Positions 9,586 to 63,240 are shown, counted from the first letter of the stretch. The stretch: 64,000 nt of DNA from an uncultured Phycisphaerales bacterium (GCA_963818385.1 CAWFRU010000004.1:513911-577910), one strand, 5' to 3'. Notes: generated by a model not told the origin, from the letters alone. Translations and numbers: made by a program.

Positions 9586-9608
9586 CACATCGGAACGTAA
9601 GGAATATC

Positions 9609-9764
9609 TCACCGCCCGCTTCGCTAGAGATCGCAGAGAGCGCTGAGGGAAATGGAAGAGGTTTCGCGCAGAGGCGCTGAGGCGCGGAGGGGGATTTGGG
9701 TTGAAAATATTTTTAATTTCTTTTTCTCCGCGCTCTCGGCGATCTCTAGCGCAGCGGGCGGTGA
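9609..9764. repeat. long imperfect inverted repeat (about 35-nt arms, about 86-nt spacer)
   Basis: The left arm tcaccgcccgcttcgctagagatcgcagagagcgc (9609..9643) pairs with the right arm gcgctctcggcgatctctagcgcagcgggcggtga (9730..9764). It lies in the spacer where the compositional regime changes. Confidence 0.8.
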
Positions 9765-9795
9765 AATCGGTCTTCGTTTCGGTCAAGATGCGTAG

Positions 9796-12479
9796 ATGAT
9801 TTCGCTGCCGATTGATGGGTATCTGGGGGAGATTGTCGATGCGCTGCGGGGCGCGAAATCGGTGGTGGTGGTGGCTGAGCCGGGGGCGGGGAAGACGACG
9901 CGGGTGGCGCCGGGGATTTTGCGGGGTGGGGTTCTTTCCCGCGAGCATCCGAATATCGTGATGCTTCAACCGCGGCGGGTTGCGGCGCGGGCGGCGGCGG
10001 CGCGGATTGCGCAGGAAAACGGGTGGGACGTCGGGCGGGAAGTGGGGTATCAGATACGGTTTGAAAAGCGGATCACGGCTCAGACCCGGCTGCGGGTTTT
10101 GACTGAGGGGGTGCTTACCCGGCAGATGTTGGACGATCCGTTTCTGGAGGGCGTGGGGGCGGTGATTTTGGATGAGTTTCATGAGCGGTCGCTGCATGTC
10201 GATCTGGCGATCGCGATGCTTCGGGAGATGCGGCAGACGGTTCGGCCGGACCTGCTGATCGTGGTGATGTCGGCGACGATGGACGCCGGGCCGGCAGCGA
10301 AATTTTGGGGGATTGCCCGATTATCGATGTGCCGGGTAGGACGTTTGGGGTGGAGATTGAGTATCGGGGGGGTGGTGGAGTTTCGGCCGTCGAGCGGGTG
10401 AGGGATGCGGTGGAAGAGGTTGTGGGTCGGAAGGAAAGCGCGGGGGATGTGCTGGTTTTTCTGCCTGGGGCACAGGAGATTCGGGGCGCAGCGCGAGCTG
10501 GCTGGTATTGGGCAGCGGCATGATCTGGCGGTGCTGCCGCTGTATGGGAGTTTGCCGGCTGAGGAGCAGATGACCGCGCTTCAGCCATCGAGCCGGCGGA
10601 AGATCATTCTGGCGACGAACATCGCGGAGACTTCGCTGACCATCGAGGGCGTGCGCTGGGTGATCGACGCGGGATTGGCGCGGGTGCCGATGTTTGACGT
10701 GCGACGGGGACTGGACCGGCTGGAGCTGAAACGGATCAGCAAGGCTTCGGCCACGCAGCGAGCGGGTGCGCGGGCCGGACCGCGCCGGGAAAATGTTTGC
10801 GGCTCTGGTCGGCGAAGGAGCAGGCGGGGCTCGAGGAATTTGAATTGCCGGAGATCCAGCGGGTGGATCTGTGCGGGGCGGTGCTGGATTTGCATGCCTG
10901 GGGGAAATCCGATCCGGGGGGGTTTGGATGGTTTGAAGCCCCCCCGCCGGAGGCGCTCGAACATGCGAGGAGTTTGCTGGGGATGCTGGGGGCGGTGGAT
11001 TCGCAGGGCGTAACGGAATTGGGTGGGCGGCTGATGAAATTGCCGGTGCATCCGCGGATTGGAAGGATGCTGTGCGAGGCGGCGGATCGGGGGTGCGCCG
11101 AGGAGGGGGCAATTCTGGCGGCGATGCTTTCGGAGGAGGTGAGGCAGGCGAAGAAGGGCGCGCCGGCGACCATTGGGGATAGCGATTTGCTGGTGATGAT
11201 GGATGGTTCGCAGGACCCTGACGTGCGGCGGGTGAGCGCGGAATTGCTGCGGATTGGGCGAAGATTGGGGGGATCGGCGCGGAGATCGCCGGATCGGGAG
11301 ACGCTTTTGAAGCTGCCGCTTTTTGGGTATCCGGATCGGGTTTGCCGGCGGAGGGAGCGAGATCCGTCGGCGGCGGTGATGGTGGGCGGAGGGGGTGTGA
11401 GGCTGGATCGGGAATCGGTGGTGCGCCAGGGGGAATTTTTTCTGGCGCTGGATGCGCGCAGCGACCCGCGAATGTCGAGCCGGGAGGCGGCGGTGCGGAT
11501 CGCGAGCGCGATCGAGCCGGGGTGGCTGGTGGAGATGTTTCCTCAGTCGATCGTTCGGGAGCAGGTTGCGGAGTTTGATCCTAAGCGCGAGGCGGTGGTT
11601 GGGCGAAGGATTGTGCGGTATCGCGACCTGGTTTTGTCGGAAGAAATGGATGCGGCGGTTAATCCGGCCGAAGCCGGGAAAAAGCTGGGTGAGGCGCTTG
11701 GGGCGCGTGCGGGAGAGTTTTTTGCGGCGGATAAGGGGGCGGCAAACATTCTCGGTCGGGTGGCGCTGCTGCGGCGGGCGATGCCGGAGCATGGCTGGCC
11801 GAAGTTCGACGATGCGCAGCTTGGGGAGATTTTCGCAGAGCTGTGCGCGGGAAAGCGGAGGGTGGAGGAGGTCCGCCGATCCGGGCTGGGGGCGGCGCTG
11901 GAGGGGCGGCTTCAATATCCGCTGGATCAGGTTCTTCGGCGTGAAGCGCCGGAGGCGCTGGAGGTTCCGAGCGGGAGCACGATTCGTTTGCAGTATCGCG
12001 GGGAGCAGTCGCCGATATTGGCGGTGCGATTGCAGGAGGTTTTCTCCTGGCAGGATACGCCGAGGGTTGCGGCGGGAAGAGTTGCGGTGGTTTTGCATTT
12101 GCTTGGACCTAATTTTCGGCCGGTGCAGATCACGGATGATCTGCGGAGCTTTTGGAAAACGATGTATTTTCAGGTTCGGAAAGACCTTAGAGTCAGATAT
12201 CCGAAACATTCCTGGCCGGATGATCCGCTTACCGCGAAGGCGGTTGCGAAGGGCTGCCGAAACACAAATGAATTCTTGCGCTCTGGCGCCTTGAGCGAAG
12301 CGAGCGGTTATAAGATTTTTAACCGCCAAGACGCCAAGAGTGCCAAGAAAAGACAACAGTTGGATTCATCCGGAGGCGCAATGGGTTTTCCAGGTTTGGC
12401 GGTAGGCGGTTTCCATGTCGCGGGTGAATTTCGGGAAATTCATGAGGGGGGAGGATTGGAATTTTGCGCGGAGAGTTGA
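9796..12479 (+). CDS. hrpB: ATP-dependent RNA helicase HrpB (DEAH box), three frameshifts, 3' end uncertain
   Basis: AEPGAGKTT (Walker A), DEFHERS and SATMD, then PIIDVPGRTFGVEIEY, LVFLPG..EI, VLPLYGSLPAEEQ, ILATNIAETSLTIEGV and a C-terminal YPKHSWPDDP. The frames change near 10308, 10490 and 10770. The last 60 or so codons of the open frame read through a repeat and the antisense of the next gene, so the true stop is probably near 12270. Confidence 0.85.
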
Positions 12480-14020: not shown

Positions 14021-15858
14021 TCATTGACGAGTTTGACGGTCAGGGCATGGTAATGTTCGGGATCGGCGGGACTCGGGTTGCACCAGACGGACCAGACGTT
14101 TCGATAGGCGGCTTCGATGTCGCGGGCGAATTTTTTTTGCGTTCATCATGGACGAGGATTCGATTCGGCCGCGGAGGGATTGGCGCAGGTCGGCGAGCCG
14201 CGGGGAGTCGGCGGCGAGGTTCGCGGCGATCTTCACGAATTCATCCGGGGTTTTGGCGATGAGGTCGGGGAGGCCGACGTTTTGGAGGATGCTTGCACCG
14301 GCGCGGCCGGCGGCGGTTTGGCCGAGGAGGGTGATGACAGGGACGCCCATCCAGAGGGCGTCGCAGGAGGTGGTGATGCCGTTATAAGGGAGGGGGTCGA
14401 GGCAGATGTCGATGCGGTCGTAGGCGCGGAGATATTTGGGGCGCGGGCAGCGGACGGCGAATTTAACGCGGTCGCCGGGGATTCCGCGGGATTCGAAGAA
14501 GGCGCGGATGCGGGCGCGGTGGGCGGCGGAGTTGGCCTGAAGGAATATCTGGGAATCGGGGACGGCGTGGAGGACTTTTGACCAGAGATCCAGCAAAGGG
14601 TCGTTGAGCTTGCAGGGGTTGTTCACGGAGCCGAAACGGATGGGGCCTGTAGGGCGCGGGGTTGCGGGGGGCTCGTCGCTCATGGGGTTGTAGCAGATCC
14701 AAGTGGTGAGGAGATGGATGGATTGCTCGTGGTAATTGTCGTCGTGGGTGATTGTGGGACCCACGGCGGCGCCGTGGGCGTTCGGGGAAAGAGGATCTAA
14801 GTAGGGATCCGTGATGCGGTAGTCGATGGCGTCGAGTCCGGAGCCCCCGGGGTAGGCTAACCAGGCGATCTGGATGGGGGCGGGTTTTTGGGCGATGGCT
14901 GGGGCGCGGTTATGGGCCATGTGCATGGCTAGGTCGATGAGGATGTCGATTCGATCGCCGCGGATTTTTTCGGCGAGCTGGTTGTGGGTGAGGGAGGCGG
15001 TTTCGTGCCAGGCGTGGGCGGATTTTCGGAGGCGGTCGGTGATCTCATCCGGTTCTTTGCAGTCGCTGTAGCAGTGGATTTCGACTTGGGCGGGGTCGTG
15101 GGATTCGAGGAGGGGGAGGACGAAGAATGTCTCGGCGTGCTGGCGGAAATAGGGGGAGACGTAGGCGATCCGCAGTCGGCGATTCGGGTCGCGGTCGTTT
15201 TCGTGGGGGCGGAATTCGATCTTGAGCGATTCCTTGAATCGCTGGTTCAGGAGGCGCTGATTCGCCAGGAGGGACTGGGGCGTGGAGCGCGGGTCGAATT
15301 CGAGGCTGTAGGCGCGGTTACTGAGGAAGACGGGGTGATTGGGTTCGAGCTGGAGGGATTTGTCCATTTCGGCGAGGGCGGCTTCGAGTTGGCCATCTTC
15401 TTTCAGGATGCGCCAAGGGTGTTGTGGGCGGCGCCGCTGGTGGGATTGAGCTCGACGGCGCGGCGGGCGGCGGGAAGGGCCTCGTCGATGTTGGCGAGGT
15501 CCATGAGGGTGACGGCAAGATAGTAGTGGGCTTCGAAAGCTTCGGGGGCGGAGGGATGGAGTTCGATGGCGCGGCGATAGGATTCGACGGCGCCCTTGGA
15601 ATCCGCGGCGGATTTTCGGGCGCGGGCGAGATTGATGTGAAAGCCGGGGGTGTTGGGCTGGAGGGTGATGGCTTTGCGGATCAGGTCGATGGCTTCAGAG
15701 TGTGCGCCTTTTTGGGCGCAGAGGACGCCGAGGAGGTGGAGGGCGTCGGGGGAATCGGGCGAGGTTGCGAGGGCCTGGCGGTAGAGACGTTCGGCCTCAC
15801 TGAAACGGCCGGCCTGATGGTGGGCCATGGCGGCGGTTAGTTGCTGGTGGAGGTTCAT
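14021..15858 (-). CDS. TPR + GT41-like glycosyltransferase, module 2, frameshift near 15412
   Basis: MNLHQQLTAAMAHHQAGRFSEAERLYRQAL.. (TPR, ORF 15403..15879) continues as ..ILKEDGQLEAALAEMDKSLQLEPNHP.. into ORF 14021..15367, which carries the same GT41 motifs as module 1. The stop at 14021 is reached only because of the T8 run at 14131..14138. Confidence 0.75.
14750..14768 (+). repeat. hairpin repeat family B, copy B2 (inside GT41 module 2)
   Basis: cccacggcggcgccgtggg followed by cgtt. It is read on the minus strand as ..NAHGAAVG... Confidence 0.9.
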
Positions 15859-18194: not shown

Positions 18195-18213
18195 CCCACC
18201 GCGGCGCGGTGGG
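18195..18213 (+). repeat. hairpin repeat family B, copy B4 (compensatory stem variant)
   Basis: cccaccgcggcgcggtggg followed by cgttcc. Relative to the consensus, both stem halves changed (GG to CG on the left, CC to CG on the right), which keeps the palindrome perfect. Confidence 0.85.
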
Positions 18214-18228
18214 CGTTCCGATATATAT

Positions 18229-19602: not shown

Positions 19603-19623
19603 GGGTTGGGTCTCCGGTGGATT

Positions 19624-19645
19624 CCGCCGGTGGGGACACCGGCGG
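19624..19645 (+). repeat. hairpin repeat family A, copy A1
   Basis: ccgccggtggggacaccggcgg, in the divergent spacer between the DUF3987-like and esterase genes. Confidence 0.9.
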
Positions 19646-19835
19646 CACTTGGGTTTTTATACGGGACTCTATATATGGGTCCAAAGGGTGCACGTTTTGG
19701 ACCTATTTTTGGAACGTGCGGTGATTTTTTTTTGCGGGAGTGTGTTTTTTTGGTTTAAAAGAAGTAGATGAGAAGGCTTTTTTCGGTTGCGGTTCTTGAT
19801 GGGGTGGGGAAGAACTTTGCGTTTGTGCGAAGGGG

Positions 19836-21910: not shown

Positions 21911-22043
21911 AAGAGAGAATGAAGAGTATTTTCGGTTATGGTTTGTGTGACGAGAAGATTTGTTGGCTCGAATATAAAACGCGGTTCCGCCGCGATGGCA
22001 CATGGCTGGCCTGGTGACGTTCGGGCGGCCTTGGGGTGTTGGG
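21911..22043 (+). repeat. R130 repeat copy A (about 130-nt conserved element, candidate ncRNA or MITE)
   Basis: Aligns along its length with 36961..37088 and 52167..52296. Shared core: TTTTATCGGTTRTGGTTTGTGTGACGAG-[variable 12 nt]-CTCGAATAT...CACATGGCTGGCCKGGTGACGTTCGGG...GGTGTTGG. Confidence 0.8.
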
Positions 22044-22247
22044 CTGGAAAGCGCCTTGCGGTTCGACACAGCTCACCGAAATCAAGCACGGCGGCTACAC
22101 GGGGAGAGGTTGGGGAGGGCGGCAGGGCGCTGAGGAGTTTTGAGCGCAGGCGGGAAAGCGCTTCCCTTCGGGCGCGGGTAAACAATTGCGGAATCCCGCG
22201 GGTGCAAGCACCCGGCGGCTTTGATAACGGAAGGCAGGGGCGGGGGG

Positions 22248-23635: not shown

Positions 23636-23887
23636 CGACTTTCGATCCTTCGGGGCCGATGAGCGGCCCGGTCAATACATTATTGAGCGCCAAACGTCAG
23701 TAAGAGCAAAACTTAACGTCAAGTTAAGTATCGAACATTCATGGGTGGAGACTTGACCTCCAATCCACGAGGGACAGGCAATCTTACAGCGGGAATATGG
23801 GAAAGGGAAAAGGCAAAATGTGGGCCTTGGAAAAGAATTTTTGGGGTGCGGTTTTGGGGGAATGGAGTGAGAGATTATTGGTAGATG

Positions 23888-23921
23888 GATTGCCGATTGC
23901 CGATTGCCAATTGCCGAATGG
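23888..23921 (+). repeat. octamer tandem array (gattgccg-type) feeding into hairpin A2
   Basis: gattgccgattgccgattgccaattgccgaatgg, with 8-nt periodicity. Confidence 0.85.
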
Positions 23922-24295: not shown

Positions 24296-24343
24296 GGTGA
24301 CTTGGTGACTAGGTGACTAGGTGACAAGGTGACAAGGTGACCA
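24296..24343 (+). repeat. nonamer tandem array (ggtgacWWg)
   Basis: ggtgacttg gtgactag gtgactag gtgacaag gtgacaag gtgacc. The same unit recurs at 28571..28636. Confidence 0.85.
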
Positions 24344-24357: not shown

Positions 24358-25986
24358 TTAGGGGGTGGGGGTGGGGATTAGTTCGTAGATTTTTCCGGTT
24401 CCTGTGGGGGTGGTTAGTTGGGAGTGTTTGAATTCGGCTTGTCCGAAGTCGAGGATAAAGAGGTTGCCGTCGGGGGAGAATTTTACGTCGATGGGGCGTT
24501 CTAGGGCGTGGGAGGTTGAGCCGGGGACTTTGCTGGCGGGGCCGGCCTGGGTGTTGAAGACGAAGTCGGAGACTTTGCCGTGCTGGTTGGGGTCTACGAG
24601 GACGACGCGGTAGCCGGGGAGGGGATTGGGGATGGGTCGGCCACTGGTGGAGAAGGGAGCGGAGTCGCCCCAGAGGGCGACGAGGAGCTGGCCCTCGTAG
24701 CGGGGGATGTGGAAGGGTCCGGATTCGGGGATCCAAGCCATTTTGGAGACGCCGGACTGCCAGGGGAATTGGGAGAGGAGGTCTTGGGCGGGCGGGGGTT
24801 GGAGCTTGCTGGTTTCGTGATCGACGACGAAGCGAACGTCGGGGTAGCCGGTGGGGAGAACCATCCATGGAGGGGGTTGGTATTTGGGGAGATAGATGGG
24901 GTCGAAGGTGCTGGAGTAGTCGGGGAAGCCGAACCAGGTGCCGGGGAAGGTCCAGCGGTAGAGGGCGTCGGGATCGTTGTCGATGGGCCGGGTGCCGCGG
25001 AGTTCCATGCCGCGGTTTGTGACGTAGATGTTGCCGTAGTCGTCGAGGGAAAGGCCGACGGGATCGCGTAGGCCGTGGGCTTCGACGCGTTCGTCGCCAC
25101 CGTCGAGGGCGACGCTCATGACGGCGCCGGTGGGTTTTTGGAGGGGGAAATCGGCGGCGGGAACTTGTTCGATGTCGCTGATGCCGAGGGGCTGGAAGGG
25201 AACCGTCACGAGTGTGCCGGGGGAGAAGAGGGAGGCCTGGGGGTTGGGGACGTCGAAACGGAAGCCGAGGAGGAAGAGGGGGACGTAGGGGATGTCGCAG
25301 GCCTGGGGATGTTCGCGAGTCCAGCCTGCTTCCCAGTTGTCGAGACCGACGACGCCGGAGTTGGTGGCGGCGCCGACGCCGAAGTAGAGGCGTGGGTCTG
25401 GGGAGGAGGAAGGGATGGCGACGTCGGTGACGCCGAAATCTCCCTGGGCGGGGAGATTGGCGATGATGGTCTGGTGGTTGCCGTTGTTGTCGAAGGCGGT
25501 GATGGCGCCCATGTCGTTGTAATCGCGGTGGGAGACGTAGAGTTTTCCGTGGTAGGCGGCCATGCCACCGATGGGGCCGTAGATGTGATAGCCGACGGAG
25601 GAGACGAGGGGGATGGGGATGCGGGTGCCGACGGGGTAGATGTCGACGCGAGCGCCGTCGGATTTGCGGATATAGAAGATGCGCGGATCGCGGCCATCGA
25701 GGCCACCTTCGGCGACGAACATGTTTCCGGCGTCGTCGAAGCACATTGCAGTTGGGCTGGTGAGGCCGGTCATGACTTCCTGGAGCTGGAAGTTTTCGGG
25801 GTACTCGACGAGTCGGCGGTCGATGGGGGTGCGGGTGGAGGAGGGGTAGTAGGTGGGACCTGTGGTGCAGGCGGTGGCTAGCAACAGGGAGAGGAGGAGA
25901 ATGCGCCGCGTAAACGCGGCCGCTAAACGGGGGAGCCCGGCGGCTACACGGGAAGAGTCGGCGGGAATAACGCGAACTACGGTCAC
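24358..25986 (-). CDS. beta-propeller lipoprotein, glucose/sorbosone-dehydrogenase-like fold
   Basis: Lipobox LLLATAC, GLTSPTAMCFDDAGNMFVAEGG, and a C-terminal RPIDVKFSPDGNLFILDFG. The first 25 or so codons are translated from two repeat elements, so the start is uncertain. Confidence 0.55.
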   Translation of the reverse strand: MTVVRVIPADSSRVAAGLPRLAAAFTRRILLLSLLLATACTTGPTYYPSSTRTPIDRRLVEYPENFQLQEVMTGLTSPTAMCFDDAGNMFVAEGGLDGRDPRIFYIRKSDGARVDIYPVGTRIPIPLVSSVGYHIYGPIGGMAAYHGKLYVSHRDYNDMGAITAFDNNGNHQTIIANLPAQGDFGVTDVAIPSSSPDPRLYFGVGAATNSGVVGLDNWEAGWTREHPQACDIPYVPLFLLGFRFDVPNPQASLFSPGTLVTVPFQPLGISDIEQVPAADFPLQKPTGAVMSVALDGGDERVEAHGLRDPVGLSLDDYGNIYVTNRGMELRGTRPIDNDPDALYRWTFPGTWFGFPDYSSTFDPIYLPKYQPPPWMVLPTGYPDVRFVVDHETSKLQPPPAQDLLSQFPWQSGVSKMAWIPESGPFHIPRYEGQLLVALWGDSAPFSTSGRPIPNPLPGYRVVLVDPNQHGKVSDFVFNTQAGPASKVPGSTSHALERPIDVKFSPDGNLFILDFGQAEFKHSQLTTPTGTGKIYELIPTPTP

Positions 25987-27057: not shown

Positions 27058-27143
<86 letters not shown>

Positions 27144-28570: not shown

Positions 28571-28636
28571 AGTGACTTGGTGACAAGGTGACTAGGTGAC
28601 TAGGTGACTTGGTGACTAGGTGACTTGGTGACTTGG
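28571..28636 (+). repeat. nonamer tandem array (ggtgacWWg), about 7 units
   Basis: agtgacttggtgacaaggtgactaggtgactaggtgacttggtgactaggtgacttggtgacttgg, between the convergent MATE and SDR genes. Confidence 0.85.
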
Positions 28637-29431: not shown

Positions 29432-29443
29432 TTTTGGAGGGGA

Positions 29444-29465
29444 CCTGCCGACTGAAGTCGGCAGG
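29444..29465 (+). repeat. hairpin repeat family D (RAYT-associated REP), copy D1
   Basis: cctgccgac-tgaa-gtcggcagg, 75 nt downstream of the RAYT stop. Confidence 0.9.
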
Positions 29466-29539
29466 CCGGGTGGTGGCGCGCCGGGTGGGGGAAGTTGCGT
29501 GGGGTTGTCCTTACTGTGTCGTGTTTGGTTTCGGTGGGT

Positions 29540-30103
29540 TTAATTTGCTTTTTCATAACGCTTATAGGGGACATGTCGTAAAAATACTTGGCGTTGTTGG
29601 GCGAATCGGAGGCCATCGCGAAGGGCGATGCGGATTTTGGTGTCGGAATAGATTCGGTAGTCGAGGCATAGGCCGGCGCGGACGGATTGGAATAGGGTGT
29701 AGCGGTAGGCGCGGCAATATTGGGATTCGTCGCGGAGGCAGCCGTCGAAATAGTCTTCCCAGAAAGGGAGAATCCGGTTCGGGAGAAGGTCGTTTACGAG
29801 CTTTGCGACTGAGCCGTGGATTTTGCGGATCATGGGGGCGAGGTCTGGTGCGCGGGGGAGGTAGCCTATTACGTGATAGTGGTTGTTCATCAGGGTGCAG
29901 ATCCAGAGATCGAAATGATGTTGGGCGGCGTATTTTTCCAGTTGGCGCCAGAAGATGGCTTTGGCTTGGGGGGAGGAGAAAGCGGGGTGGCGATCGGTGC
30001 AGCGGGTAGTGATGAAATAGAGGGTGTTGTCGCGGTACCAGTGCTCTTTGCGATGTTGGTTTTCGTGGAATTCTTTTTGGGTGGAGGAGCCTTTTTTGAA
30101 CAT
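29540..30103 (-). CDS. REP-associated tyrosine transposase (IS200-like Y1 HUH family, RAYT)
   Basis: LYFITTRCTDRHPAF (beta1), LMNNHYHVIGY (the HUH motif as H-Y-H), WEDYFDGCLRDE and AYRYTLFQSVRAGL (catalytic Tyr region). 187 aa, flanked by REPs. Confidence 0.75.
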   Translation of the reverse strand: MFKKGSSTQKEFHENQHRKEHWYRDNTLYFITTRCTDRHPAFSSPQAKAIFWRQLEKYAAQHHFDLWICTLMNNHYHVIGYLPRAPDLAPMIRKIHGSVAKLVNDLLPNRILPFWEDYFDGCLRDESQYCRAYRYTLFQSVRAGLCLDYRIYSDTKIRIALRDGLRFAQQRQVFLRHVPYKRYEKAN

Positions 30104-30123
30104 AAAAAAAACCTGCGGAAAGA

Positions 30124-30145
30124 CCTGCCGACTGAAGTCGGCAGG
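30124..30145 (+). repeat. hairpin repeat family D, copy D2
   Basis: Identical to D1 and sits 20 nt upstream of the RAYT ATG. On the minus strand the hairpin is followed by a T8 run (30104..30111), so it could also act as the fbaB terminator. Confidence 0.9.
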
Positions 30146-30164
30146 CCGGGTTTTAGTGGGGTGG

Positions 30165-31338: not shown

Positions 31339-31357
31339 CCCACGGCGGCGCCGTGGG
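31339..31357 (+). repeat. hairpin repeat family B, copy B5
   Basis: cccacggcg-g-cgccgtggg followed by cgtttcc. Intergenic. Confidence 0.9.
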
Positions 31358-31383
31358 CGTTTCCATTTGTGCGAGGGCGGGGT

Positions 31384-32997: not shown

Positions 32998-33030
32998 AAT
33001 GCCGATTGCCGATTGCCAAATGCCGAATGG
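32998..33030 (+). repeat. octamer tandem array feeding into hairpin B6
   Basis: aatgccgattgccgattgccaaatgccgaatgg. Confidence 0.85.
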
Positions 33031-33042: not shown

Positions 33043-33061
33043 CCCACGGCGGCGCCGTGGG
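33043..33061 (+). repeat. hairpin repeat family B, copy B6
   Basis: cccacggcggcgccgtggg followed by cgtttcc. Confidence 0.9.
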
Positions 33062-33091
33062 CGTTTCCATTAGTAGATGTCGTCTCATCGC

Positions 33092-34124: not shown

Positions 34125-34139
34125 GAATACGGGGGGATT

Positions 34140-34161
34140 CCGCCGGTGGGGACACCGGCGG
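34140..34161 (+). repeat. hairpin repeat family A, copy A3
   Basis: ccgccggtggggacaccggcgg. Confidence 0.9.
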
Positions 34162-34185
34162 CACTTTGAGAAGGAGTAGCGCGCA

Positions 34186-36960: not shown

Positions 36961-37088
36961 AGGAGAGAGATTTTTATCGGTTGTGGTTTGTGTGACGAGG
37001 GAAGGCGGTTGCTCGAATATCACGCGGGTTCCGCAGCGATAACACATGGCTGGCCTGGTGACGTTCGGGACGGCTTTGGGGTGTTGGA
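36961..37088 (+). repeat. R130 repeat copy B, abutted by the IS5 insertion
   Basis: Same core as copies A and C. It ends ..GGGGTGTTGGAC immediately before the TA target duplication of the IS. Confidence 0.8.
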
Positions 37089-38451: not shown

Positions 38452-38552
38452 ACCCCCGCCCATCGTGCCGAAACTGGCGGAAGAGGACAGGGAGGGCTCC
38501 CCCGGCGTACCAGGGGAGGGGAAAATACGGGGAAAATAGTTATAGTGTGGGG

Positions 38553-39728
38553 GTGAGCAAACGAGTTGCGATTCTTGGGTCTACGGGGTCGATTGGGTGC
38601 AGCACGCTGGATGTGGTTCGGCATCTGGGGCCCCCCTACCGGGCGGTGGGATTGGGGGCGCATCGGCAGGTGGGGAAGCTGGCCGGGCAATGTAAAGAGT
38701 TCAGCCCGCATTCGGTGGCGATTGTGGATCGGGCGCGGGTGGAGGAGTTGAAGGAATTGCTGGGGGTGGCGGGGCCGCGGATTTATGCGGGGGAGAGCGG
38801 GCTGGTGGATCTGGCGCGGCATGAGGAGGTGGATATTGTTGTCGCGGCCGTGGTCGGGGCGGCGGGGCTGCCGGCGGCGCTGGCGGCGGTGAGGGCGGGG
38901 AAGACATTGGCGCTGGCGAATAAGGAGGCGCTTGTCGTCGCGGGGTCATTGCTGATTCCGGAGGCTCGGAAGCGCGGGGTGAAGTTGCTTCCTGTGGATT
39001 CGGAGCATTCGGCGATATTTCAGGCGATGGCTTGTGGGAGGAGAAGCGAAGTCAAGCGGGTGGTTCTTACGGCTAGCGGGGGTCCGTTTCGAAATGCGCC
39101 TTTGGAGAAGATTCGGAGCGCGACTGTGGAGGACGCGCTGAATCATCCTACTTGGAGGATGGGAAATAAGATTACGATTGATTCGGCGACGATGTTTAAC
39201 AAAGCGCTGGAACTTATTGAGGCTTGCTGGTTGTTTGATCTGAAGCCGGAGCAGGTGCAGATCATGGTGCATCCGGAGTCGGTGATTCATTCGATGGTGG
39301 AGTTTGTGGATGGGTCGGTGATGGCGCAGATGTCACCGCCGGATATGCGGACGCCGATTCAGTATGCGCTGACTTATCCGGATCGTGCGGTGGGATGTTC
39401 GAGACGGATGGATTGGACGAAATGTCATAGTCTGAACCTGGAGCCACCGGATTTTGAGCGGTTTCCGGCTTTGAAGCTGGCGTATAGGGTGGCGGAGGCT
39501 GGAGGGACGGCTGGGGCGGTGTTAAACGCGGCAAATGAGGTAGGAGTTGCGGCCTTTATGGGGGGTCGAATCGCCTTTGGCGAGATTTCGGGTATTGTGG
39601 AACATACAATTTCGACTCATCGTATTCAGGAGCAACCGTCTCTGGACGATTTGCTCGAAGCGGACCGATGGGCGAGAGAGACGGCCGAAAGTTCGATAGC
39701 GGCGAGGGTTTGTGCGCCGTTGGGTTAA
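38553..39728 (+). CDS. dxr: 1-deoxy-D-xylulose 5-phosphate reductoisomerase
   Basis: GTG start at 38553 (VSKRVAILGSTGSIGCSTLDV). The ORF-track start at 38412 is translated from a family C repeat. LANKEALV, DSEHSAIFQ, LTASGGPFR, and NHPTW.MG.KITIDSATM. Confidence 0.9.
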   Translation: MSKRVAILGSTGSIGCSTLDVVRHLGPPYRAVGLGAHRQVGKLAGQCKEFSPHSVAIVDRARVEELKELLGVAGPRIYAGESGLVDLARHEEVDIVVAAVVGAAGLPAALAAVRAGKTLALANKEALVVAGSLLIPEARKRGVKLLPVDSEHSAIFQAMACGRRSEVKRVVLTASGGPFRNAPLEKIRSATVEDALNHPTWRMGNKITIDSATMFNKALELIEACWLFDLKPEQVQIMVHPESVIHSMVEFVDGSVMAQMSPPDMRTPIQYALTYPDRAVGCSRRMDWTKCHSLNLEPPDFERFPALKLAYRVAEAGGTAGAVLNAANEVGVAAFMGGRIAFGEISGIVEHTISTHRIQEQPSLDDLLEADRWARETAESSIAARVCAPLG

Positions 39729-39767
39729 GAAAGCGCCGGGCAAGCCCGGCGGCTACACGGGACATCG

Positions 39768-41896: not shown

Positions 41897-41970
41897 GGAA
41901 AACCCGAAATTCGAAACTCGAATGACGAATCAAATTGCTCTGCTGAAATCCTCGCCTTTTGGTATCCGGC

Positions 41971-42009
41971 CCCCACCCTAACCCTCCCCCGGAGTACCAG
42001 GGGAGGGGA
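41971..42009 (+). repeat. hairpin repeat family C, copy C1, nested inside a larger palindrome
   Basis: cccccaccctaaccctcccccggagtaccaggggagggg, with stem ccctcccc/ggggaggg. The outer arms attgctctgctgaaatcctc (about 41931) and gaggatttcagcagagcagaat (about 42029) enclose it. Confidence 0.85.
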
Positions 42010-42090
42010 TAAGAAGGGTTGCTGATAGAGGATTTCAGCAGAGCAGAATCAAATCTGAAATCCGAATGAGTGAATTTAAGCACGGGGAAA

Positions 42091-42112
42091 CCTGCCGACT
42101 AAAGTCGGCAGG
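42091..42112 (+). repeat. hairpin repeat family D, copy D3 (solo REP)
   Basis: cctgccgact-aa-agtcggcagg with the same acc...ccggg flanks as D1 and D2 and one loop substitution. Confidence 0.85.
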
Positions 42113-42138
42113 CCGGGGTGGGATCTTGCTGCGCCTGT

Positions 42139-42807: not shown

Positions 42808-42871
42808 ATTTGTTGATTATCGGACGGGGGAGGGGAATGGGAGTAGGAAATCCGAAATCCAGAATGGAATA

Positions 42872-42905
42872 GATTGCCGAATGCCGATTGCCAATTGCCG
42901 AATGG
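42872..42905 (+). repeat. octamer tandem array feeding into hairpin C2
   Basis: gattgccgaatgccgattgccaattgccgaatgg. Confidence 0.85.
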
Positions 42906-42912
42906 AAAGCGA

Positions 42913-42981
42913 CCCCCACCCTAGCCCTCCCCTCTTCGAGCCTGAGCCTCAGAGCCGAAGGCCGGAGTACCAGGGGAGGGG
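42913..42981 (+). repeat. hairpin repeat family C, copy C2, carrying a 29-nt nested insert
   Basis: cccccaccctagccctcccc [tcttcgagcctgagcctcagagccgaagg] ccggagtaccaggggaggg. The insert splits the two stem halves. Confidence 0.8.
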
Positions 42982-44072
42982 AAAAGAGGAGAGGTGGCGA
43001 CTGGCAGTTTCTGGAGGAGAAGCTTTTGGCGGTCGGTCCACCAGCGGGGGCGGTTTTCGTTTAGATCGGTAATGCCTAGTTCGCGGTGAATCGCGGCGTG
43101 GAGGGCTTCGATTCCCTGGGCGGTTTTGGCGGAGATGGGGATAGGGTTTAGAGATTGGAAATCCCAGGCTGAGGGTTGATCGATCTTGTTGATGATGGTG
43201 ATTTTTTGGGGGGATGCGGGAAAAGTGAGCGGGGTCTGGGGCGGATGGGTGGCGTCGAGGAGGATGAGGAGGAGGTCGGATTGGGCGATTTTTTTTTGGC
43301 TGGAGGCGATGGCGGCGCGTTCTAGGGGGTCGGGGGTTTGACGGTGGCCGGGGGTGTCGATGATGGTGGCGGGAAGGCCGGCGATGTCGGCGAGTTCGGC
43401 GACGTAGTCGCGGGTGGTGCCGGGGATGTCGGCGGTGATGGAGCGCGGGGCGGCGAAGAGGAGATTGGCGAGGGTGGATTTTCCGACGTTGGGCTCGCCT
43501 ACGATGGCGATTTGTGGGGGATGTAATAGGCGCCAGAGGGTTTGGTCCTGGAGGATTAGGGTGGGGTCCAGCGATTTATTTTTGAGGGCTTCGTGCCAGA
43601 GGGTGGGCTGGTTGAGGAGCAATCTCAGGGATTGGCGGGTCAACGCTTGCGGAAGATGGGTGAGCATCTCGCGTTGGAAATCGTCGGAGGCTTCGGCAAA
43701 GGATTCGTGGGGAAGGGGCCCCCCACCCTCACCCTCCCCCGGAGTACCAGGGGAGGGGAAAGAGGGGATATGAGTGAAGCCTTCGCGTTGGCAGAGGGCG
43801 AGGGCGGAGGCGAGGATCCAGGGGCCGCCGTGGAGGGAGATGTCGGCCCATTGGGAATCTTGGGAGAGGAGGAGGATGGGATCGTCAATGATTTCGGATT
43901 GGTCGCGGAGTTGGGCGTGGAGGCATTTTCCGGGAATGGGGGATTTGGAGAAATGGACGGCGAGGAATTGAGGGACGAGGGGGCCGTGGATGCGGATGAC
44001 GGCGATGGCGGATCCCTGGGAGCTGGGGTTGGCGGTTAGGGCGATGACGGAGTTCTTGCTGCTTGTCGCCAT
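42921..44072 (-). CDS. MnmE/TrmE-like GTPase lacking the canonical C-terminus, with an in-frame repeat insertion
   Basis: TrmE-type N-terminus (GSAIAVIRIHGP) and a G domain (IAIVGEPNVGKSTLAN, DIPGTTRD, DTPG, NKID). There is no C-terminal CIGK. The 3' end runs into repeat C2. Confidence 0.65.
   Translation of the reverse strand: MATSSKNSVIALTANPSSQGSAIAVIRIHGPLVPQFLAVHFSKSPIPGKCLHAQLRDQSEIIDDPILLLSQDSQWADISLHGGPWILASALALCQREGFTHIPSFPSPGTPGEGEGGGPLPHESFAEASDDFQREMLTHLPQALTRQSLRLLLNQPTLWHEALKNKSLDPTLILQDQTLWRLLHPPQIAIVGEPNVGKSTLANLLFAAPRSITADIPGTTRDYVAELADIAGLPATIIDTPGHRQTPDPLERAAIASSQKKIAQSDLLLILLDATHPPQTPLTFPASPQKITIINKIDQPSAWDFQSLNPIPISAKTAQGIEALHAAIHRELGITDLNENRPRWWTDRQKLLLQKLPVATSPLFPSPGTPAFGSEAQARRGEG
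43720..43758 (+). repeat. hairpin repeat family C, copy C3, inside the MnmE-like coding region
   Basis: A 39-nt full-length copy (13 codons) is read in frame as ..PSPGTPGEGEGGG.. at about residues 105-118 of the ORF. Confidence 0.85.
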
Positions 44073-44166
44073 TGGGGAAGAGATTAACCGCGAAGGCGCG
44101 AAGAGCGCGAAGGAAAAAAATCAGAAAATGATGCGCAATCGCATATGGATTAGAAAATGCGGAGGA

Positions 44167-44206
44167 CCCCCACCCTAGCCCTCCCCCGGAGTACCAGGGG
44201 AGAGGG
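44167..44206 (+). repeat. hairpin repeat family C, copy C4
   Basis: cccccaccctagccctcccccggagtaccaggggagaggg. Confidence 0.85.
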
Positions 44207-44307
44207 AGAAAGGGGAGAAAGCGGGAAATTGGCTTATGAAGGGGGAAGGCCGTTAGAATTTATTGCTGGCGGGCGGGTAACGAAGGCGCGTTTGACTGAG
44301 GGATATC

Positions 44308-47431: not shown

Positions 47432-47537
47432 GAAAAATTGAGAATTTGAAATTTGAGATTTGGGGAGAGCGCCGCAGAAGTGCGGCGGCTACATGGGGAG
47501 GGTTCTGGCATTTGGCGCGAGATTGATTTTTTGCTTG

Positions 47538-47577
47538 CCCTCACCCCTCCCCTCTCCCGGAGTACCGGGCGAGGGGG
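47538..47577 (+). repeat. hairpin repeat family C variant, copy C5
   Basis: ccctcacccctcccctctcccggagtaccgggcgaggggg. The same variant occurs at 52410. Confidence 0.8.
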
Positions 47578-47813
47578 AAAGAGAAGAAATTGGAGATCAA
47601 GCTGGGCCCGACTCGGCGGTGACAAATTAAGCGCCGGAACGCGCAGCGCATTTCTGCGATTATTTTCTTGGCGTCAAACTCGGCGTATTGACCCCGGTCT
47701 AATTCGTCAATTCCGCGCTGAAGCTCGCGGCGAAGATAGGCTTCGTGCTCGGAGGTGAATTCCTTTTCAGGGCCAAATTCATCGGTCTCGGGATTGGCAG
47801 ATTCAGGGCTCAT
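47541..47813 (-). CDS. small hypothetical protein with ParD-like C-terminal segment
   Basis: EAYLRRELQRGIDELDRGQYAEFDAKKIIAEMR resembles the C-terminal half of ParD-type antitoxins, but there is no RHH N-terminus and no toxin partner. The 3' end reads into repeat C5. Confidence 0.3.
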   Translation of the reverse strand: MSPESANPETDEFGPEKEFTSEHEAYLRRELQRGIDELDRGQYAEFDAKKIIAEMRCAFRRLICHRRVGPSLISNFFSFPLARYSGRGEG

Positions 47814-50536: not shown

Positions 50537-50585
50537 GGCGCTGCGAGAGAGGTGAGCAGTAGAGAGTAGAGCAGTAGAAAAAAGA

Positions 50586-50625
50586 CCCCCACCCTAACCC
50601 TCCCCCGGAGTACCAGGAGAGGGGA
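50586..50625 (+). repeat. hairpin repeat family C, copy C6
   Basis: cccccaccctaaccctcccccggagtaccaggagagggga. Confidence 0.85.
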
Positions 50626-50671
50626 TAAGAGGGGAAAGAGGGGAAAAGCGAAAGAGACGAATAGGAGAATC

Positions 50672-52112: not shown

Positions 52113-52166
52113 GGGATTTTGTGCGATTGAAAGATCTATATGGTTTGGGAGCGTTGAGGGCGTTAA

Positions 52167-52296
52167 GGAGAGAAGAATTTTTATCGGTTATGGTTTGTGT
52201 GACGAGAAGAGGCGGTCACTCGAATATAACAGGCGGTTTCGCCGCGATAACACATGGCTGGCCGGGTGACGTTCGGGGCGGCCTAGAGGTGTTGGG
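52167..52296 (+). repeat. R130 repeat copy C
   Basis: Same conserved core as copies A and B. Confidence 0.8.
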
Positions 52297-52322
52297 CGGA
52301 GTACTGTATCCATTGTAAGAGC

Positions 52323-54071
52323 TTGGCGCTATGGGATTCCGCCGGTGAGGACACCGGCGGCACTTGGGGAGTGTTGGGCGATCGCATGTGGTCTCGGAAT
52401 TTTTCACGGCCCTCACCCCAGCCCTCTCCCGGAGTACCGGGCGAGGGGGTAAGAGGGGGCTGGCGGGAGTTGGTTTGGGTGGGGGTGATTGGGGTGGGGG
52501 TGGCGATCTTTTATTCTGTCGCGGCCTGGAATAATCAGTTTGTCTTTGATGATCATATTGTGATTGAGGGGTTGCCGGCGAAGGTGAGTGGACGGGAATT
52601 GGCGGGGTTGTTTGGGGAGCCGCATTATTTGAATTTTTTGTATTACCGGCCGGTGACTCGGGCGACGCTGGCGATTCAGCGCGGGGTTTGGGGGATCCAG
52701 CCGCGGGCGTTTCATGTTTTTAATGCGGGGTTGGCGGGGTTCGTGTTTATTGCAGTTTATCTGCTGCTTAGGAGCGGGGAGTTTGGGATTGGAGCGTTGG
52801 CGGCGGGGCTGGGAGCGCTTTGGGTGGCGGTGCATCCGGCGACGAGCGAGTGTGTTTATCCGGCGGCTTCGGGGAGGGAATCGCTGATGCCGATGTTTTT
52901 TATTCCGCTGGGGATGTGGATGTATTTGAAAAACGGATGGGGATGGTTTGCGGGGGCGATGTTTGTTTTTGTGCTGGGGTTGCTTTCGAAGGAGCAGGCG
53001 GTGGTTTTGGGGGGAATGTTTTTTGTGGGGGATTTGATTTGGCGACGAGATAGAGCGATGGTTCGATGGGCTATCGTCGTTGCTGTTTTGGCGGGGTATT
53101 TTGTTTTGCGGCATTTTATTTTTTCGGGAAGGTCGATTCATCTGGATTTTTGGGAGCATCCGGGGGAGGTGGGGTTGTCGATTTTGTATGGGGTGCAGAC
53201 GGTGGTGTTGCCGTTTGGGGAATTACGGTATGAGCCGCCATTTGAGGTTTGGTTTTCGGGGTGGAGGGTGGTTGTGGCGGGGATTTTTTTGGTTGGGGTG
53301 GTTGTGGCGGTCTGGAAGGTGGGGATTTGGCGGGCGGGAGTTTTCTGGGGAGCGTGGTTCGTCTTGATGCAGCTTCCGACGGCGCATCTAGTCGCGGAAC
53401 AGGAGGCGGGGTATTCGGAGAGGTATGTGGCGCTGGCGGGAGTGGGGTTTGCGGCGGTGGTTGCGGGGGTGGTGTCGCGGGTTAAGAAGCCGAGGGTGAT
53501 CGGGGCTTGTGCGGCAACGGCGGTCTTGTGGGTTTTGGGGATGGGGGTGATTTCGTTTGGGAGGGGGCAATATTATTCCGATGATTTTGCGTTTGATGGG
53601 CAGTGGGAACGGACGAATCCGAAATCCTCCGTGGCGCATTCGGGGCTGGGAGTGGCGTATGAAAAGATGGGGGAGACGGACAACGCGGTCGCGGAATATG
53701 AGGCGGCGCTGGCGTGTAGTCCGGGGGACTGGACGGCGAACGATAATTTGGGCGTGATCCTTTTGCACCGGGGGGATTACTGGGAGGCGGAGAAACATCT
53801 GCGGGTGGATATCGAGGCGGAGATTCATGATCCGCAGATCATGGTGAATTATGGGATCGCGCTGGAGATGCTGGGGGTGCAACAGAAGAATGCCGGGTTT
53901 CGAGATGCGGGGAAGTCTTGGTTTGAGGCGGTGATTAAGAGCAATCCAGGGGATGCGAATGCGCATTTTGAGCTGGGGATGTGGGAGCGGAGGTTTGGGG
54001 ATAAGAAAATCGCTGAGGTGGAGTTGGGGAGGGCGTATGAGTTGGATCCGGGGTTGAGGGGGCTCAAGTAG
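52323..54071 (+). CDS. polytopic membrane protein with C-terminal TPRs (TMTC/PMT_2-like glycosyltransferase, DUF1736-type)
   Basis: NNQFVFDDHIVI, YYRPVT, LLSKEQAVV and multiple TM segments, then TPRs (..GLGVAYEKMGETDNAVAEYEAAL..). The first 40 or so codons are translations of repeats A4 and C7, so the real start is probably after 52450. Confidence 0.6.
   Translation: MALWDSAGEDTGGTWGVLGDRMWSRNFSRPSPQPSPGVPGEGVRGGWRELVWVGVIGVGVAIFYSVAAWNNQFVFDDHIVIEGLPAKVSGRELAGLFGEPHYLNFLYYRPVTRATLAIQRGVWGIQPRAFHVFNAGLAGFVFIAVYLLLRSGEFGIGALAAGLGALWVAVHPATSECVYPAASGRESLMPMFFIPLGMWMYLKNGWGWFAGAMFVFVLGLLSKEQAVVLGGMFFVGDLIWRRDRAMVRWAIVVAVLAGYFVLRHFIFSGRSIHLDFWEHPGEVGLSILYGVQTVVLPFGELRYEPPFEVWFSGWRVVVAGIFLVGVVVAVWKVGIWRAGVFWGAWFVLMQLPTAHLVAEQEAGYSERYVALAGVGFAAVVAGVVSRVKKPRVIGACAATAVLWVLGMGVISFGRGQYYSDDFAFDGQWERTNPKSSVAHSGLGVAYEKMGETDNAVAEYEAALACSPGDWTANDNLGVILLHRGDYWEAEKHLRVDIEAEIHDPQIMVNYGIALEMLGVQQKNAGFRDAGKSWFEAVIKSNPGDANAHFELGMWERRFGDKKIAEVELGRAYELDPGLRGLK
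52339..52360 (+). repeat. hairpin repeat family A, copy A4
   Basis: ccgccggtgaggacaccggcgg (one loop substitution). Confidence 0.85.
52410..52449 (+). repeat. hairpin repeat family C variant, copy C7
   Basis: ccctcaccccagccctctcccggagtaccgggcgaggggg. Confidence 0.8.
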
Positions 54072-54141
54072 TTGCGAGTTGCGAGTTGCGAGCAAAGGCA
54101 AATGCATTTAACTCGCAACGCGCAACTTGCAACTCGCAACT
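54070..54141. terminator. long palindrome P2 (gttgcgag octamers) filling the whole spacer between convergent stop codons; candidate bidirectional terminator
   Basis: The left arm (gttgcgag x3, 54071..54092) and the right arm ctcgcaacgcgcaacttgcaactcgcaac (54112..54140) are separated by the loop caaaggcaaaTGCATTTaa. The flanking stop codons are at 54069..54071 (+) and 54140..54142 (-). Confidence 0.6.
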
Positions 54142-56832: not shown

Positions 56833-56915
56833 TGGAGGTCCTTGATTGATGATGGTGCGCGGCAATTTTTGCGCCGGGGTGCGGATTCAGTTGGAAAAGA
56901 TTGGATGGGGGAGGA

Positions 56916-60787: not shown

Positions 60788-60867
60788 GAGTTGCGAGTTA
60801 CGAGTTGCGCGTTGCGAGTGAAATCCATTGCATTTTCACGCAACTCGCAACTCGTAACTCGCAACTT
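60788..60867. repeat. long palindrome P3 (gttgcgag-type octamers)
   Basis: The arms gagttgcgagttacgagttgcgcgttgcgag and gcaactcgcaactcgtaactcgcaactt enclose the loop tgaaatccatTGCATTTtcac. It lies between the pilT stop and the sppA start. Confidence 0.85.
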
Positions 60868-61991: not shown

Positions 61992-62084
61992 GTGCGGGGT
62001 AGTTTACGTTGCCGGGGCGTGGGATCGCAACAAAATCCCGTGTTGTTGCAACGGGACGGGAGGGACTGTACACAGACCGGCGAT

Positions 62085-62987
62085 ATGAACACACGCATTC
62101 GCAAAGCGGTTATCCCCGCGGCTGGTCTGGGCACCCGGCATTTTCCCGCGTCGCACGCGGTGAAGAAGGAGCTGTTTCCGATCGTGGGGCGGGATGGGAT
62201 CGCCCGGGCGCTGATCCACTATCACCTGATCGAACTGCTGGCGGCGGGAATGGAGGAGGTTTGCATTATCGTGCAGCCGGGGGACGACAAGGCGATACGG
62301 GATTACTTCGCGGGACCGGACGCGGAGTATTTGAAGCGGCTGGAGAAATATCCGGCGCTGGCGGCGGAGGCGCGGGAGATGCGGGGGATGAATGAGCGGA
62401 TTTCGTTTGCGGTTCAGCATGAACAGGAGGGGTATGGACATGCCGTGTATCAGACCAGATCGTTCGCGGGGGATGAGATGGTGCTGCTGTGTCTGGGGGA
62501 TCATTTGTTTCGAGGGGAGCCAAGGTCGCCTTACCGGCGGCTGGTGAAGGCGGCGCCGCTGTGCGGGGGGAAGAGCGTTTCGGCGGTGAATCGGATCGGG
62601 CCGAGGGAATTGAAAGGGTTTGGAACGATCGCGGGGAGGCGGCGGAGGGAGAATCCTGGGCTGATTGATGTGAGCCTGATTATTGAGAAGCCGGATGTGG
62701 CGACGGCTCGGGAGAAGCTGCGGGTGGATGGTCTTGAAGAGAATGTTTTTTTGGGGTGGTTTGGGATGCACGCGCTGGCGCCTTCGATCTATGTGGTGCT
62801 GGAGGAGATGATCCGGGGTGAGGTGCGAGATAACGGGGAGTTTCAGCTTACGCGGGCGCAGGAGATTCAGAGACAGCGGCAGGGGTATGTGGCGATGGAA
62901 GTGAGCGATTGCGAGCGGTTTGATTTTGGAATTCCGGATGATTTTGTGCATAGTTTGAATGCGTTCAGGTCAAATGCAGGCGGTTAA
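62085..62987 (+). CDS. galU: UTP--glucose-1-phosphate uridylyltransferase-like sugar nucleotidyltransferase
   Basis: Starts at MNTRIRKAVIPAAGLGTRHFPASHAVKKELFPIV (ATG 62085), the GalU N-terminal signature. The ORF-track start at 61488 is antisense overlap with pilT. Confidence 0.7.
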   Translation: MNTRIRKAVIPAAGLGTRHFPASHAVKKELFPIVGRDGIARALIHYHLIELLAAGMEEVCIIVQPGDDKAIRDYFAGPDAEYLKRLEKYPALAAEAREMRGMNERISFAVQHEQEGYGHAVYQTRSFAGDEMVLLCLGDHLFRGEPRSPYRRLVKAAPLCGGKSVSAVNRIGPRELKGFGTIAGRRRRENPGLIDVSLIIEKPDVATAREKLRVDGLEENVFLGWFGMHALAPSIYVVLEEMIRGEVRDNGEFQLTRAQEIQRQRQGYVAMEVSDCERFDFGIPDDFVHSLNAFRSNAGG

Positions 62988-63240
62988 AGGCGCGAGTTGA
63001 CAGAGCGGACGGCAACCGATTTCTGTAGCGGGGCACCATTTAAGACAATTATCTGCAATAACTTATAGTCAATAAGGCGGCTTGGGCTCATTTTTTGGTT
63101 GACTTTCCGACAAAGAAGATTAAATTTGCGACATTGCAGCAAACGGTTGCTGTAGGCGGTCTTAAGTGCGGTTGGATCGCTGGAGAACAAATCTTGGGGT
63201 TCCGAACCCCGCCGGCAGGCAAATTCGGAGGAGGTCAGAA

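Follow-up and report, generated by a model that had tools for sequence, protein, structure and literature searches.

Short repeats share one orientation on a strongly strand-skewed planctomycete chromosome segment

In a 64,000-nucleotide stretch of DNA from an uncultured Phycisphaerales bacterium, a soil planctomycete (GCA_963818385.1, CAWFRU010000004.1:513911-577910; the whole stretch is called the window below), about 36 copies of nine short-repeat families, found between 9.6 and 63 kb, all lie on the + strand, which is also the G-rich strand. These are the hairpin families A (four copies), B (six), C (eight), D (three), E (two) and F (four), a longer repeat that we call R130 (three), and heptamer (four) and octamer (two) tandem arrays. 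From their sequences, most of these repeats appear to be repetitive extragenic palindromic (REP)-type hairpin elements, and a predicted REP-associated tyrosine transposase (RAYT) gene lies between two family D copies.

Uniform orientation and strand skew within the window

An earlier reading of the window, made from its sequence alone (the sequence-only reading), had proposed that every copy of every family points the same way, and self-BLAST and both-strand scans bear this out. Self-BLAST returned 79 direct high-scoring segment pairs versus 10 inverted ones, and all 10 inverted pairs were self-palindromic, falling in heptamer arrays (27058-27143, 54070-54141 and 60788-60866) or in an inverted repeat (9609-9647/9726-9764). 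Families A to F and the GATTGCC and GGTGACTW arrays were located by pattern scans of both strands with mismatches allowed, for which no matches are expected by chance. The scans placed family A at 19619, 23931, 34135 and 52334; B at 13056 (variant), 14760, 16542, 18195 (variant), 31339 and 33043; C at 38502 (partial), 41989, 42962 (split), 43739, 44186, 47557, 50605 and 52429; D at 29443, 30123 and 42090; E at 25903 and 35831; and F at 22090, 25939, 39748 and 47484. The three R130 copies (21932-22044, 36970-37087 and 52177-52297) share one orientation. The counts given earlier for A, B, C, D and R130 (four, six, eight, three and three) were reproduced, and families E and F were added. Five octamer and two nonamer arrays had also been counted as oriented alike; their units are mostly unrelated and cannot be oriented against each other, and the true array families are GGTGACTW (24296, 28572) and a GATTGCC type (23888, 31764, 32998, 42872).

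The copies are not all separate observations. Because the B copies at 13056, 14760 and 16542 lie inside a tandem gene triplication, they were counted as one event, and some heptamer arrays, being joined to A or B in composite units, do not count separately. About 25 independent binary choices remain, giving P ~3 × 10−8 for uniformity within families, while a common direction between different families can be defined only relative to the G-rich strand.

Among the Pfam-checked genes flanking the copies, six settings are between two + genes, about 16 between two - genes, eight convergent and three divergent. Four families occur both between - genes (A at 23931, C at 42957, F at 25939 and R130 at 36970) and between + genes (A at 52334; C at 38495, 50598 and 52422; F at 39748; R130 at 52177). 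Transcription therefore does not set the orientation, in agreement with the earlier statement that it holds regardless of the direction of flanking genes.

The DNA that carries these repeats has an extreme strand asymmetry. Its ClpX protein (22388-23635, - strand) is 99-85% identical to proteins from Tepidisphaeraceae/Phycisphaerae metagenome-assembled genomes (MAGs), which indicates that the window is planctomycete chromosome; according to cluster tables, it is part of a contig of 2.07 Mb. From about 9.6 to 63 kb, GC skew on the + strand is +0.3 to +0.5 and AT skew is weakly negative, and the G-rich strand consists of ~40% G and 18% C. At four-fold degenerate sites of + genes the frequency of G is 0.79 and that of C 0.05, and - genes, read in their own sense, have C at 0.67 and G at 0.11, so that third-codon-position skew goes with the DNA strand and not with gene direction. 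Typical bacterial skew is ~2.5% (PMC8941118), and that of the window is more than 10 times the usual value. The same skew is found in Illumina-based JGI contigs of relatives (L001/L220, 94% identity, and L207), so that it is real, and also in L064. Moderately skewed relatives (L215-L219, about -0.12) agree in polarity at the syntenic locus. Unskewed patches correspond to young insertions: the window has an IS5-family transposase (37109-37909), and L001 has a group II intron as well as further insertion sequences (ISs). Our literature search on extreme skew in the Tepidisphaeraceae clade found nothing relevant.

The features of the window are as follows.

14760..14782, + strand: family B hairpin (CCCACGGCGGCGCCGTGGGCGTT); together with 13056 (variant) and 16542, inherited by a 1.7-kb triplication
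18195..18217, + strand: family B variant, between two - genes
19619..19649, + strand: family A hairpin (GGATTCCGCCGGTGGGGACACCGGCGGCACT), with divergent genes on either side
21932..22044, + strand: R130, between convergent genes; insertion site of a group II intron in the relative L001
23931..23961, + strand: family A, between two - genes; preceded by a heptamer array at 23888-23917
24296..24341, + strand: GGTGACTW octamer array; second array at 28572-28633
25903..25929, + strand: family E hairpin (GCGCCGCGTAAACGCGGCCGCTAAACG); second copy at 35831-35857
27058..27143, no strand: palindromic heptamer-array pair, (GATTGCC)n...(GGCAATC)n
29443..29470, + strand: family D hairpin (ACCTGCCGACTGAAGTCGGCAGGCCGGG), directly downstream of the RAYT gene
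29540..30103, - strand: predicted RAYT gene, 187 amino acids
30123..30150, + strand: family D hairpin, directly upstream of the RAYT gene and direct relative to the other flank
31339..31361, + strand: family B, between two - genes
33043..33065, + strand: family B, preceded by a heptamer array at 32998-33029
34135..34165, + strand: family A, between the divergent genes LpxD (-) and FGGY kinase (+)
36970..37087, + strand: R130, between - genes; an IS5-family element without skew adjoins it (transposase at 37109-37909, - strand)
38495..38521, + strand: partial family C, the hairpin half alone, between + genes
39728..39761, + strand: family F, a hairpin followed by CTACACGGG, so that the - strand reads 5'-GTAG and then the hairpin; the other copies end at 22103, 25952 and 47497
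41968..42020, + strand: family C (CCCCCACCCTAACCCTCCCCCGGAGTACCAGGGGAGGGG...), between convergent genes
42090..42117, + strand: solo copy of family D
42906..42985, + strand: family C split by an internal insertion of ~29 nucleotides (nt), between - genes; preceded by a heptamer array at 42872-42904
43718..43770, + strand: family C
44165..44215, + strand: family C, between divergent genes
47536..47590, + strand: family C, CCGGGCGAGGGG subtype, between convergent genes, with an F copy at 47484
50584..50640, + strand: family C, between two + HtrA-like genes; L064 carries R130 here
52177..52297, + strand: R130, between + genes; missing from L064 (179-nt indel, 52154-52332)
52334..52364, + strand: family A, between two + genes; kept in the relative L064
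52408..52460, + strand: family C, between + genes; kept in L064

REP-type features of the repeats and the RAYT gene

REP elements are defined by a 5' GTAG-type tag 0-2 nt from the foot of a hairpin (PMC6006769, PMC3333891); in the canonical form, the tag is GT[AG]G, the stem measures 7-20 bp and the loop 2-5 nt. Family F carries GTAG 0 nt from the hairpin foot on the - strand. Family A carries the tag at 2 nt in low-skew Tepidisphaerales MAGs, where it reads GTAG-TG-hairpin (...CACTACATGCGA on the other strand). In the window copies of A the tag reads CAAG, ATAG or AAAG; on the + strand, CTAC has become CTTG, CTAT or CTTT, so that the GT is lost, and the stems are perfectly conserved. Such a loss is expected for immobilised copies under the mutation bias of the + strand. 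Families B, C and D have no GTAG tag, and family E has TTAG in its place. B, D and E each consist of a clean hairpin, and in C the hairpin is extended on its 5' side by C-rich sequence.

The dispersed copies lie between Pfam-supported genes, except for the three B copies in the triplicated unit. This tandem triplication (12366-18173) has a unit of ~1.7 kb, 74-88% identical between copies, and encodes proteins with TPR and GT41 glycosyltransferase-like regions; each unit holds the family B hairpin at the same position, with extra loop DNA in the copy at 13056. The families are also highly repeated, A being found in more than 80 and C in more than 120 further loci. Self-BLAST and both-strand scans found in the window no inverted pair of A, B, C, D, E or F of the kind that makes up REP doublets forming hairpins (REPINs), in which two REPs stand about 70-110 bp apart. 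In low-skew genomes, A and C often form REPIN-like inverted doublets 70-110 bp apart, which are rare in high-skew contigs. The family C hairpin (CCCTCTCCCGGAGTACCGGGAGAGGG, extended at its 5' side by sequence of the CCCTCACCCC type) is distributed very widely among metagenomes from soil and peat (L087-L206), on contigs with a G+C of 0.50 to 0.71, and mostly as REPIN-like inverted doublets. Judged by these features, the repeats would mostly be REP-type hairpin elements. The sequence-only reading had linked the short repeats to Y1/HUH transposases that act on single-stranded hairpins; this suits the REP-type hairpins and the RAYT gene flanked by D copies, and does not extend to R130 and the tandem arrays, which are not Y1-type hairpins.

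The open reading frame (ORF) at 29540-30103 is classified as a RAYT on its motifs and profile matches. Its protein matches NCBIfam NF047646 with an E-value of 6.7 × 10−20 and 71.5 bits, under the equivalog cut-off of 80, and has a weak match to Pfam Y1_Tnp (4 × 10−4). It contains an HUH motif (H75-Y-H77) and a downstream Y135-x3-Q139, as predicted for a Y1/HUH enzyme, in a layout that agrees with the catalytic arrangement described for RAYTs (PMC6006769). Homologues carry the JGI label RayT, and a sequence search gave no match to a solved structure. The codons of the gene are as skewed as those of its neighbours. Its DeoC-RayT-...-MatE-Ldh-NHL-ClpX neighbourhood is kept in relatives, with the DeoC-RayT locus present in L215-L219. 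The full strand skew and the synteny together mark it as a resident, domesticated gene, as RAYTs usually are, vertically inherited and flanked by hairpins that would be its cognate repeats. FbaA and PNPOx genes, which stand between RayT and an SDR gene in relatives, are absent from the window.

The two family D hairpins that flank the gene (29442-29471 and 30122-30151) are identical at 30/30 nt and in direct orientation. In the moderately skewed relatives L216 and L217 (L216 9969-10594), the RAYT-flanking D hairpins are inverted, which is usual for RAYTs. The downstream D flank of the window thus has the other orientation than that of the relatives, and a flipped copy would otherwise oppose the skew. 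This suggests that a skew-opposing orientation has been replaced even at the RAYT locus.

Relatives, replication polarity and candidate mechanisms

We compared the window with L064 (MAG CAVWLP01, 88% identical and syntenic to 49.7-57.3 kb) and L001 (94% identical), and found that the repeats turn over between close relatives. The R130 copy at 52154-52332 is missing from L064. In turn, L064 carries R130 at the site of a family C copy of the window (~50.55 kb) and family E at the site of a palindromic array (54.07-54.14 kb), and it has a 32-nt insertion of B at 56889. L001 has a C copy and extra DNA in place of the window's F copy (22.09-22.17 kb). All of these strain-specific copies (R130, B and E in L064; C in L001) have the window orientation relative to the G-rich strand. 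Identity among the copies of one family, at 90-100%, exceeds the 88-94% genome identity between strains, so that the copies are young. As young strain-specific copies all face the same way, the bias appears to act at or soon after insertion, and slow mutational erosion does not explain it.

The relation between orientation and skew also holds outside the window. About 200 loci were collected in one genome scan for family A and one metagenome scan for family C; flank skew was measured on the strand bearing the element in window orientation, and duplicates and loci syntenic to the window were dropped. Where absolute skew was at least 0.15, 26 copies were concordant with the G-rich strand and 5 discordant (p = 2 × 10−4); between 0.08 and 0.15 there were 43 and 17 (p = 1 × 10−3), and below 0.08 there were 109 and 94, which is not significant. 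Concordance thus rises with skew from ~54% to 72% and 84% outside the window, and is 100% inside it. The strongly skewed contigs, drawn from many samples, have G+C values between 0.57 and 0.71, suggesting that they represent several lineages.

Leading strands usually have more G than C and at least as much T as A, and they match the lagging-strand template in sequence. The + strand of the window has this composition, so the G-rich strand would be the lagging-strand template. The contig L207, which an identical IS5 transposase led to and which belongs to the high-skew lineage, has tuf-secE-nusG-rplK on the G-rich strand, which fits the usual polarity. The C-rich strand carries the 5' REP tag, which is GTAG in F and, among relatives, in A; it is also the sense strand of the RAYT gene. 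If the usual skew polarity holds, the tagged strand would be the leading-strand template.

These observations bear on the replication-coupled spread that the sequence-only reading had proposed by analogy with IS608, citing a preference of such elements for the lagging-strand template. The literature bears out this rule, in which the active strand of IS608 sits on that template (PMC5027513). The proposal stands in so far as orientation tracks the G-rich strand in independent contigs, and departs from the IS608 expectation in that the tagged strand is the C-rich one. Strand-coupled handling of single-stranded DNA is likely. On balance, we lean towards a form of it in which REP-type repeats are handled at the replication fork by RAYT-type Y1/HUH enzymes. 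The repeats would be non-autonomous and would be handled as single-stranded DNA by such enzymes, one of which is encoded between two D copies; the resident RAYT may move these particular families. The enzyme would recognise one strand of the folded hairpin, and as the strands at the fork differ greatly in single-strandedness, insertion and/or excision would be strand-specific and the bias would arise there. One orientation relative to replication would then accumulate, and with the strong asymmetry implied by a roughly ten-fold excess of skew, the bias could become nearly absolute.

Within this scheme we favour retention over directed insertion, because the 5'-tagged, active strand lies on the C-rich strand. 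Copies whose active strand falls on the exposed lagging-strand template would be excised, and those with it on the other strand would be frozen. The tag loss in family A, the re-orientation of the RAYT flank and the precedent of attC sites are consistent with retention, which fits better than IS608-like insertion. In sedentary integrons, the active strand of attC sites is held on the leading-strand template, which limits excision and stabilises large arrays (PMC5371416). Like the repeats, attC sites are folded single-strand sites, and the logic is that of retention; unlike them, they are recombined by the tyrosine recombinase IntI and form one array at one locus instead of dispersed intergenic repeats.

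Two other systems are close to the one described here. The REP/RAYT system or REPtron of E. coli and Pseudomonas likewise has short GC-rich intergenic hairpins in many copies, with several families per genome, a GTAG tag at the hairpin foot (as in F, and in A of relatives), a vertically inherited Y1/HUH gene flanked by its own hairpins (as with D), and repeats that are targets for IS elements and introns. However, canonical REPs mostly form inverted doublets (REPINs, or bacterial interspersed mosaic elements), whereas the window has singlets facing one way and direct RAYT flanks, and its families B, C, D and E lack GTAG. The IS200/IS605 family (IS608, ISDra2), which transposes as single strands by 'peel and paste' at the replication fork, also combines a Y1 HUH enzyme with hairpins recognised on one strand, and its genomic orientation is biased relative to replication (PMC5027513). 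[quoted passage not shown] The D-rayT-D arrangement resembles left and right IS ends (LE/RE) on one strand, but the gene is long-resident with a C-rich sense strand, and we do not assign it to IS200/IS605. In the REP/RAYT literature that we examined, we found no genome-wide bias of REP orientation relative to replication. The nearest case is that of tandem REP arrays in P. fluorescens SBW25, which are forward to one side of the origin but reversed beyond it (PMC3116915); these are few, large arrays in a genome of ordinary skew, unlike the dispersed copies of many families that are all biased here.

Composition rather than replication might orient the insertions, if a strand-specific target motif were made commoner on one strand by the skew. 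We regard this as unlikely. It would account for the climb of concordance with skew magnitude, for the tendency of elements to land adjacent to each other or at the same intergenic spots, and it agrees with the use of short single-strand motifs by Y1 enzymes, e.g., TTAC for IS608 (PMC5027513). However, the flanks of A, B, C and D show no common motif, all nine unrelated families would need G-biased targets, and a noisy link between weak local skew and replication direction would produce the same gradient just as well. Alternatively, selection could keep the orientation of repeats that serve the host on one strand, as a priming or restart signal or as a polar signal like FtsK-orienting polar sequences (KOPS) or Chi. 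That the stems stayed perfectly conserved while the A tags of the window decayed, that orientation follows the DNA strand and not transcription, and that a RAYT-flanking copy was re-oriented would all suit such a function. Against it, presence or absence of copies and replacement of families at the same site between strains 88-94% identical show that the copies are dispensable, many unrelated sequences are biased alike, and the copies are intergenic, unlike KOPS or Chi; we consider a host function quite improbable.

Strand-specific mutation could also have erased or converted reverse copies, given a very strong mutation bias that has visibly eroded the unpaired A tag. Both-strand scans of the window with 2-4 mismatches allowed found no decayed reverse copies, though, and the surviving copies are 90-100% identical, including strain-specific and hence recent insertions. 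Conversion of a reverse into a forward copy needs ~10 specific changes in loop and flanks with the stems intact. A mutational artefact is thus very improbable, and erasure of reverse copies is essentially excluded.

Several results weigh against handling of REP-type repeats by RAYT-type enzymes at the fork. Five to six copies in strongly skewed contigs are discordant, including a C copy by rplK (L207) and doublets in L016 and L119. No clean reversal of polarity was found in ~230 loci, so no skew switch stands behind the orientation result; in L221, a block of mobile DNA separates a side with a skew of +0.42 from one with -0.2, and the negative side is without repeats. A motif scan of all loci found no dnaA. 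As to polarity, rpoA-rplQ of L215 lie on the weakly C-rich strand, in conflict with the hint from L207, and gene-strand counts (44 vs 47) are uninformative. With the tagged strand on the C-rich strand, a simple IS608 model predicts the opposite orientation if the G-rich strand is leading. Families B, C, D and E have no GTAG tag, and the bias extends to R130 and the tandem arrays, which are not hairpins of the REP type, so a single RAYT cannot account for every family. Intermediates of excision or insertion were not seen; public sequencing runs share at most 12% of sampled 31-letter words from window positions 41900-44300, and none of them contains this strain. Hairpin stability differs little between strands, family C excepted. 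Selection against stable hairpins on the exposed strand was rejected as an explanation, as strand energies are near-equal except in C and long perfect palindromic arrays persist.

A broader and more tentative idea, which we hold to be doubtful, is that in this lineage one template strand stays single-stranded for an unusual length of time or is poorly repaired, which would drive both the skew and a strand filter acting on the REPs, the RAYT flanks, and R130 with its intron and IS110 guests. If such a long-exposed or poorly repaired template did exist, this would be the first genomic demonstration of coupling between REP/RAYT and the fork, with a polarity opposite to that of IS608 and survival on the leading-strand template. 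The repeats bear on how REPs spread and on whether RAYTs act at the fork; in model bacteria, inverted pairs hide any strand preference. This free-living bacterial lineage has singlet copies on strands that differ very clearly, its strand asymmetry coming close to that of animal mitochondrial DNA. Orientation can be read off directly, so that models of single-strand transposition could be tested here in a natural setting. Handling by RAYT-type enzymes at the fork predicts that orientation flips at the origin and terminus.

R130, tandem arrays and neighbouring DNA

R130 is ~115 nt long and not REP-like, and a search of Rfam gave nothing credible for it. As a structured RNA it was rejected, since the + strand folds better through G-U pairs alone and shows no covariation. 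It was also rejected as a 3' fragment of a group II intron, as the intron stops just before R130. The repeat draws mobile DNA: a group II intron lies at its 5' edge in L001 (9301-11277), and in the window an IS5-family element lies at its 3' edge. Nine other contigs (L221-L229) have R130 split near position 38 by an IS110-family element and the same intron.

Long perfect intergenic palindromes at 27058-27143, 54070-54141 and 60788-60866 consist of (GATTGCC)n/(GGCAATC)n and (AGTTGCG)n/(CGCAACT)n arrays, and their presence suggests that inverted arrangements are tolerated. The palindrome at 27058-27143 is kept in L001, and L064 has a family E hairpin at the site of 54070-54141. The family C copy in the rplK-rplA spacer of L207 (3797-3850), which opposes the local skew, adjoins an inserted block of an IS5 element and two ORFs.

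Many genes of the window are truncated or split into two to three ORFs, including an HrpB-like helicase (9796-12479), FGGY kinase (34186-35711), RseP (39768-41896), ClpX (22388-23671; 415 vs 462 amino acids) and the GT41/TPR paralogues (12366-18173). This suggests homopolymer indel errors of long-read assembly, or pseudogenes.

Positions 1-9600 hold accessory metabolic genes, with genes for SDRs, M24, M29 and M81 peptidases, RraA-like and IclR proteins, and a tRNA-Val (8029-8102); at Rfam gathering thresholds, tRNA alone was matched in the window. This part has a lower G+C at third codon positions and a weak skew of the same sign, and looks as if it were more recently acquired. Strong skew sets in with the helicase gene at 9796. 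The boundary holds a 39-nt inverted repeat (9609-9647/9726-9764), 92% identical, with a 78-nt spacer and CGCAGAG/GCGCTGAGG motifs.

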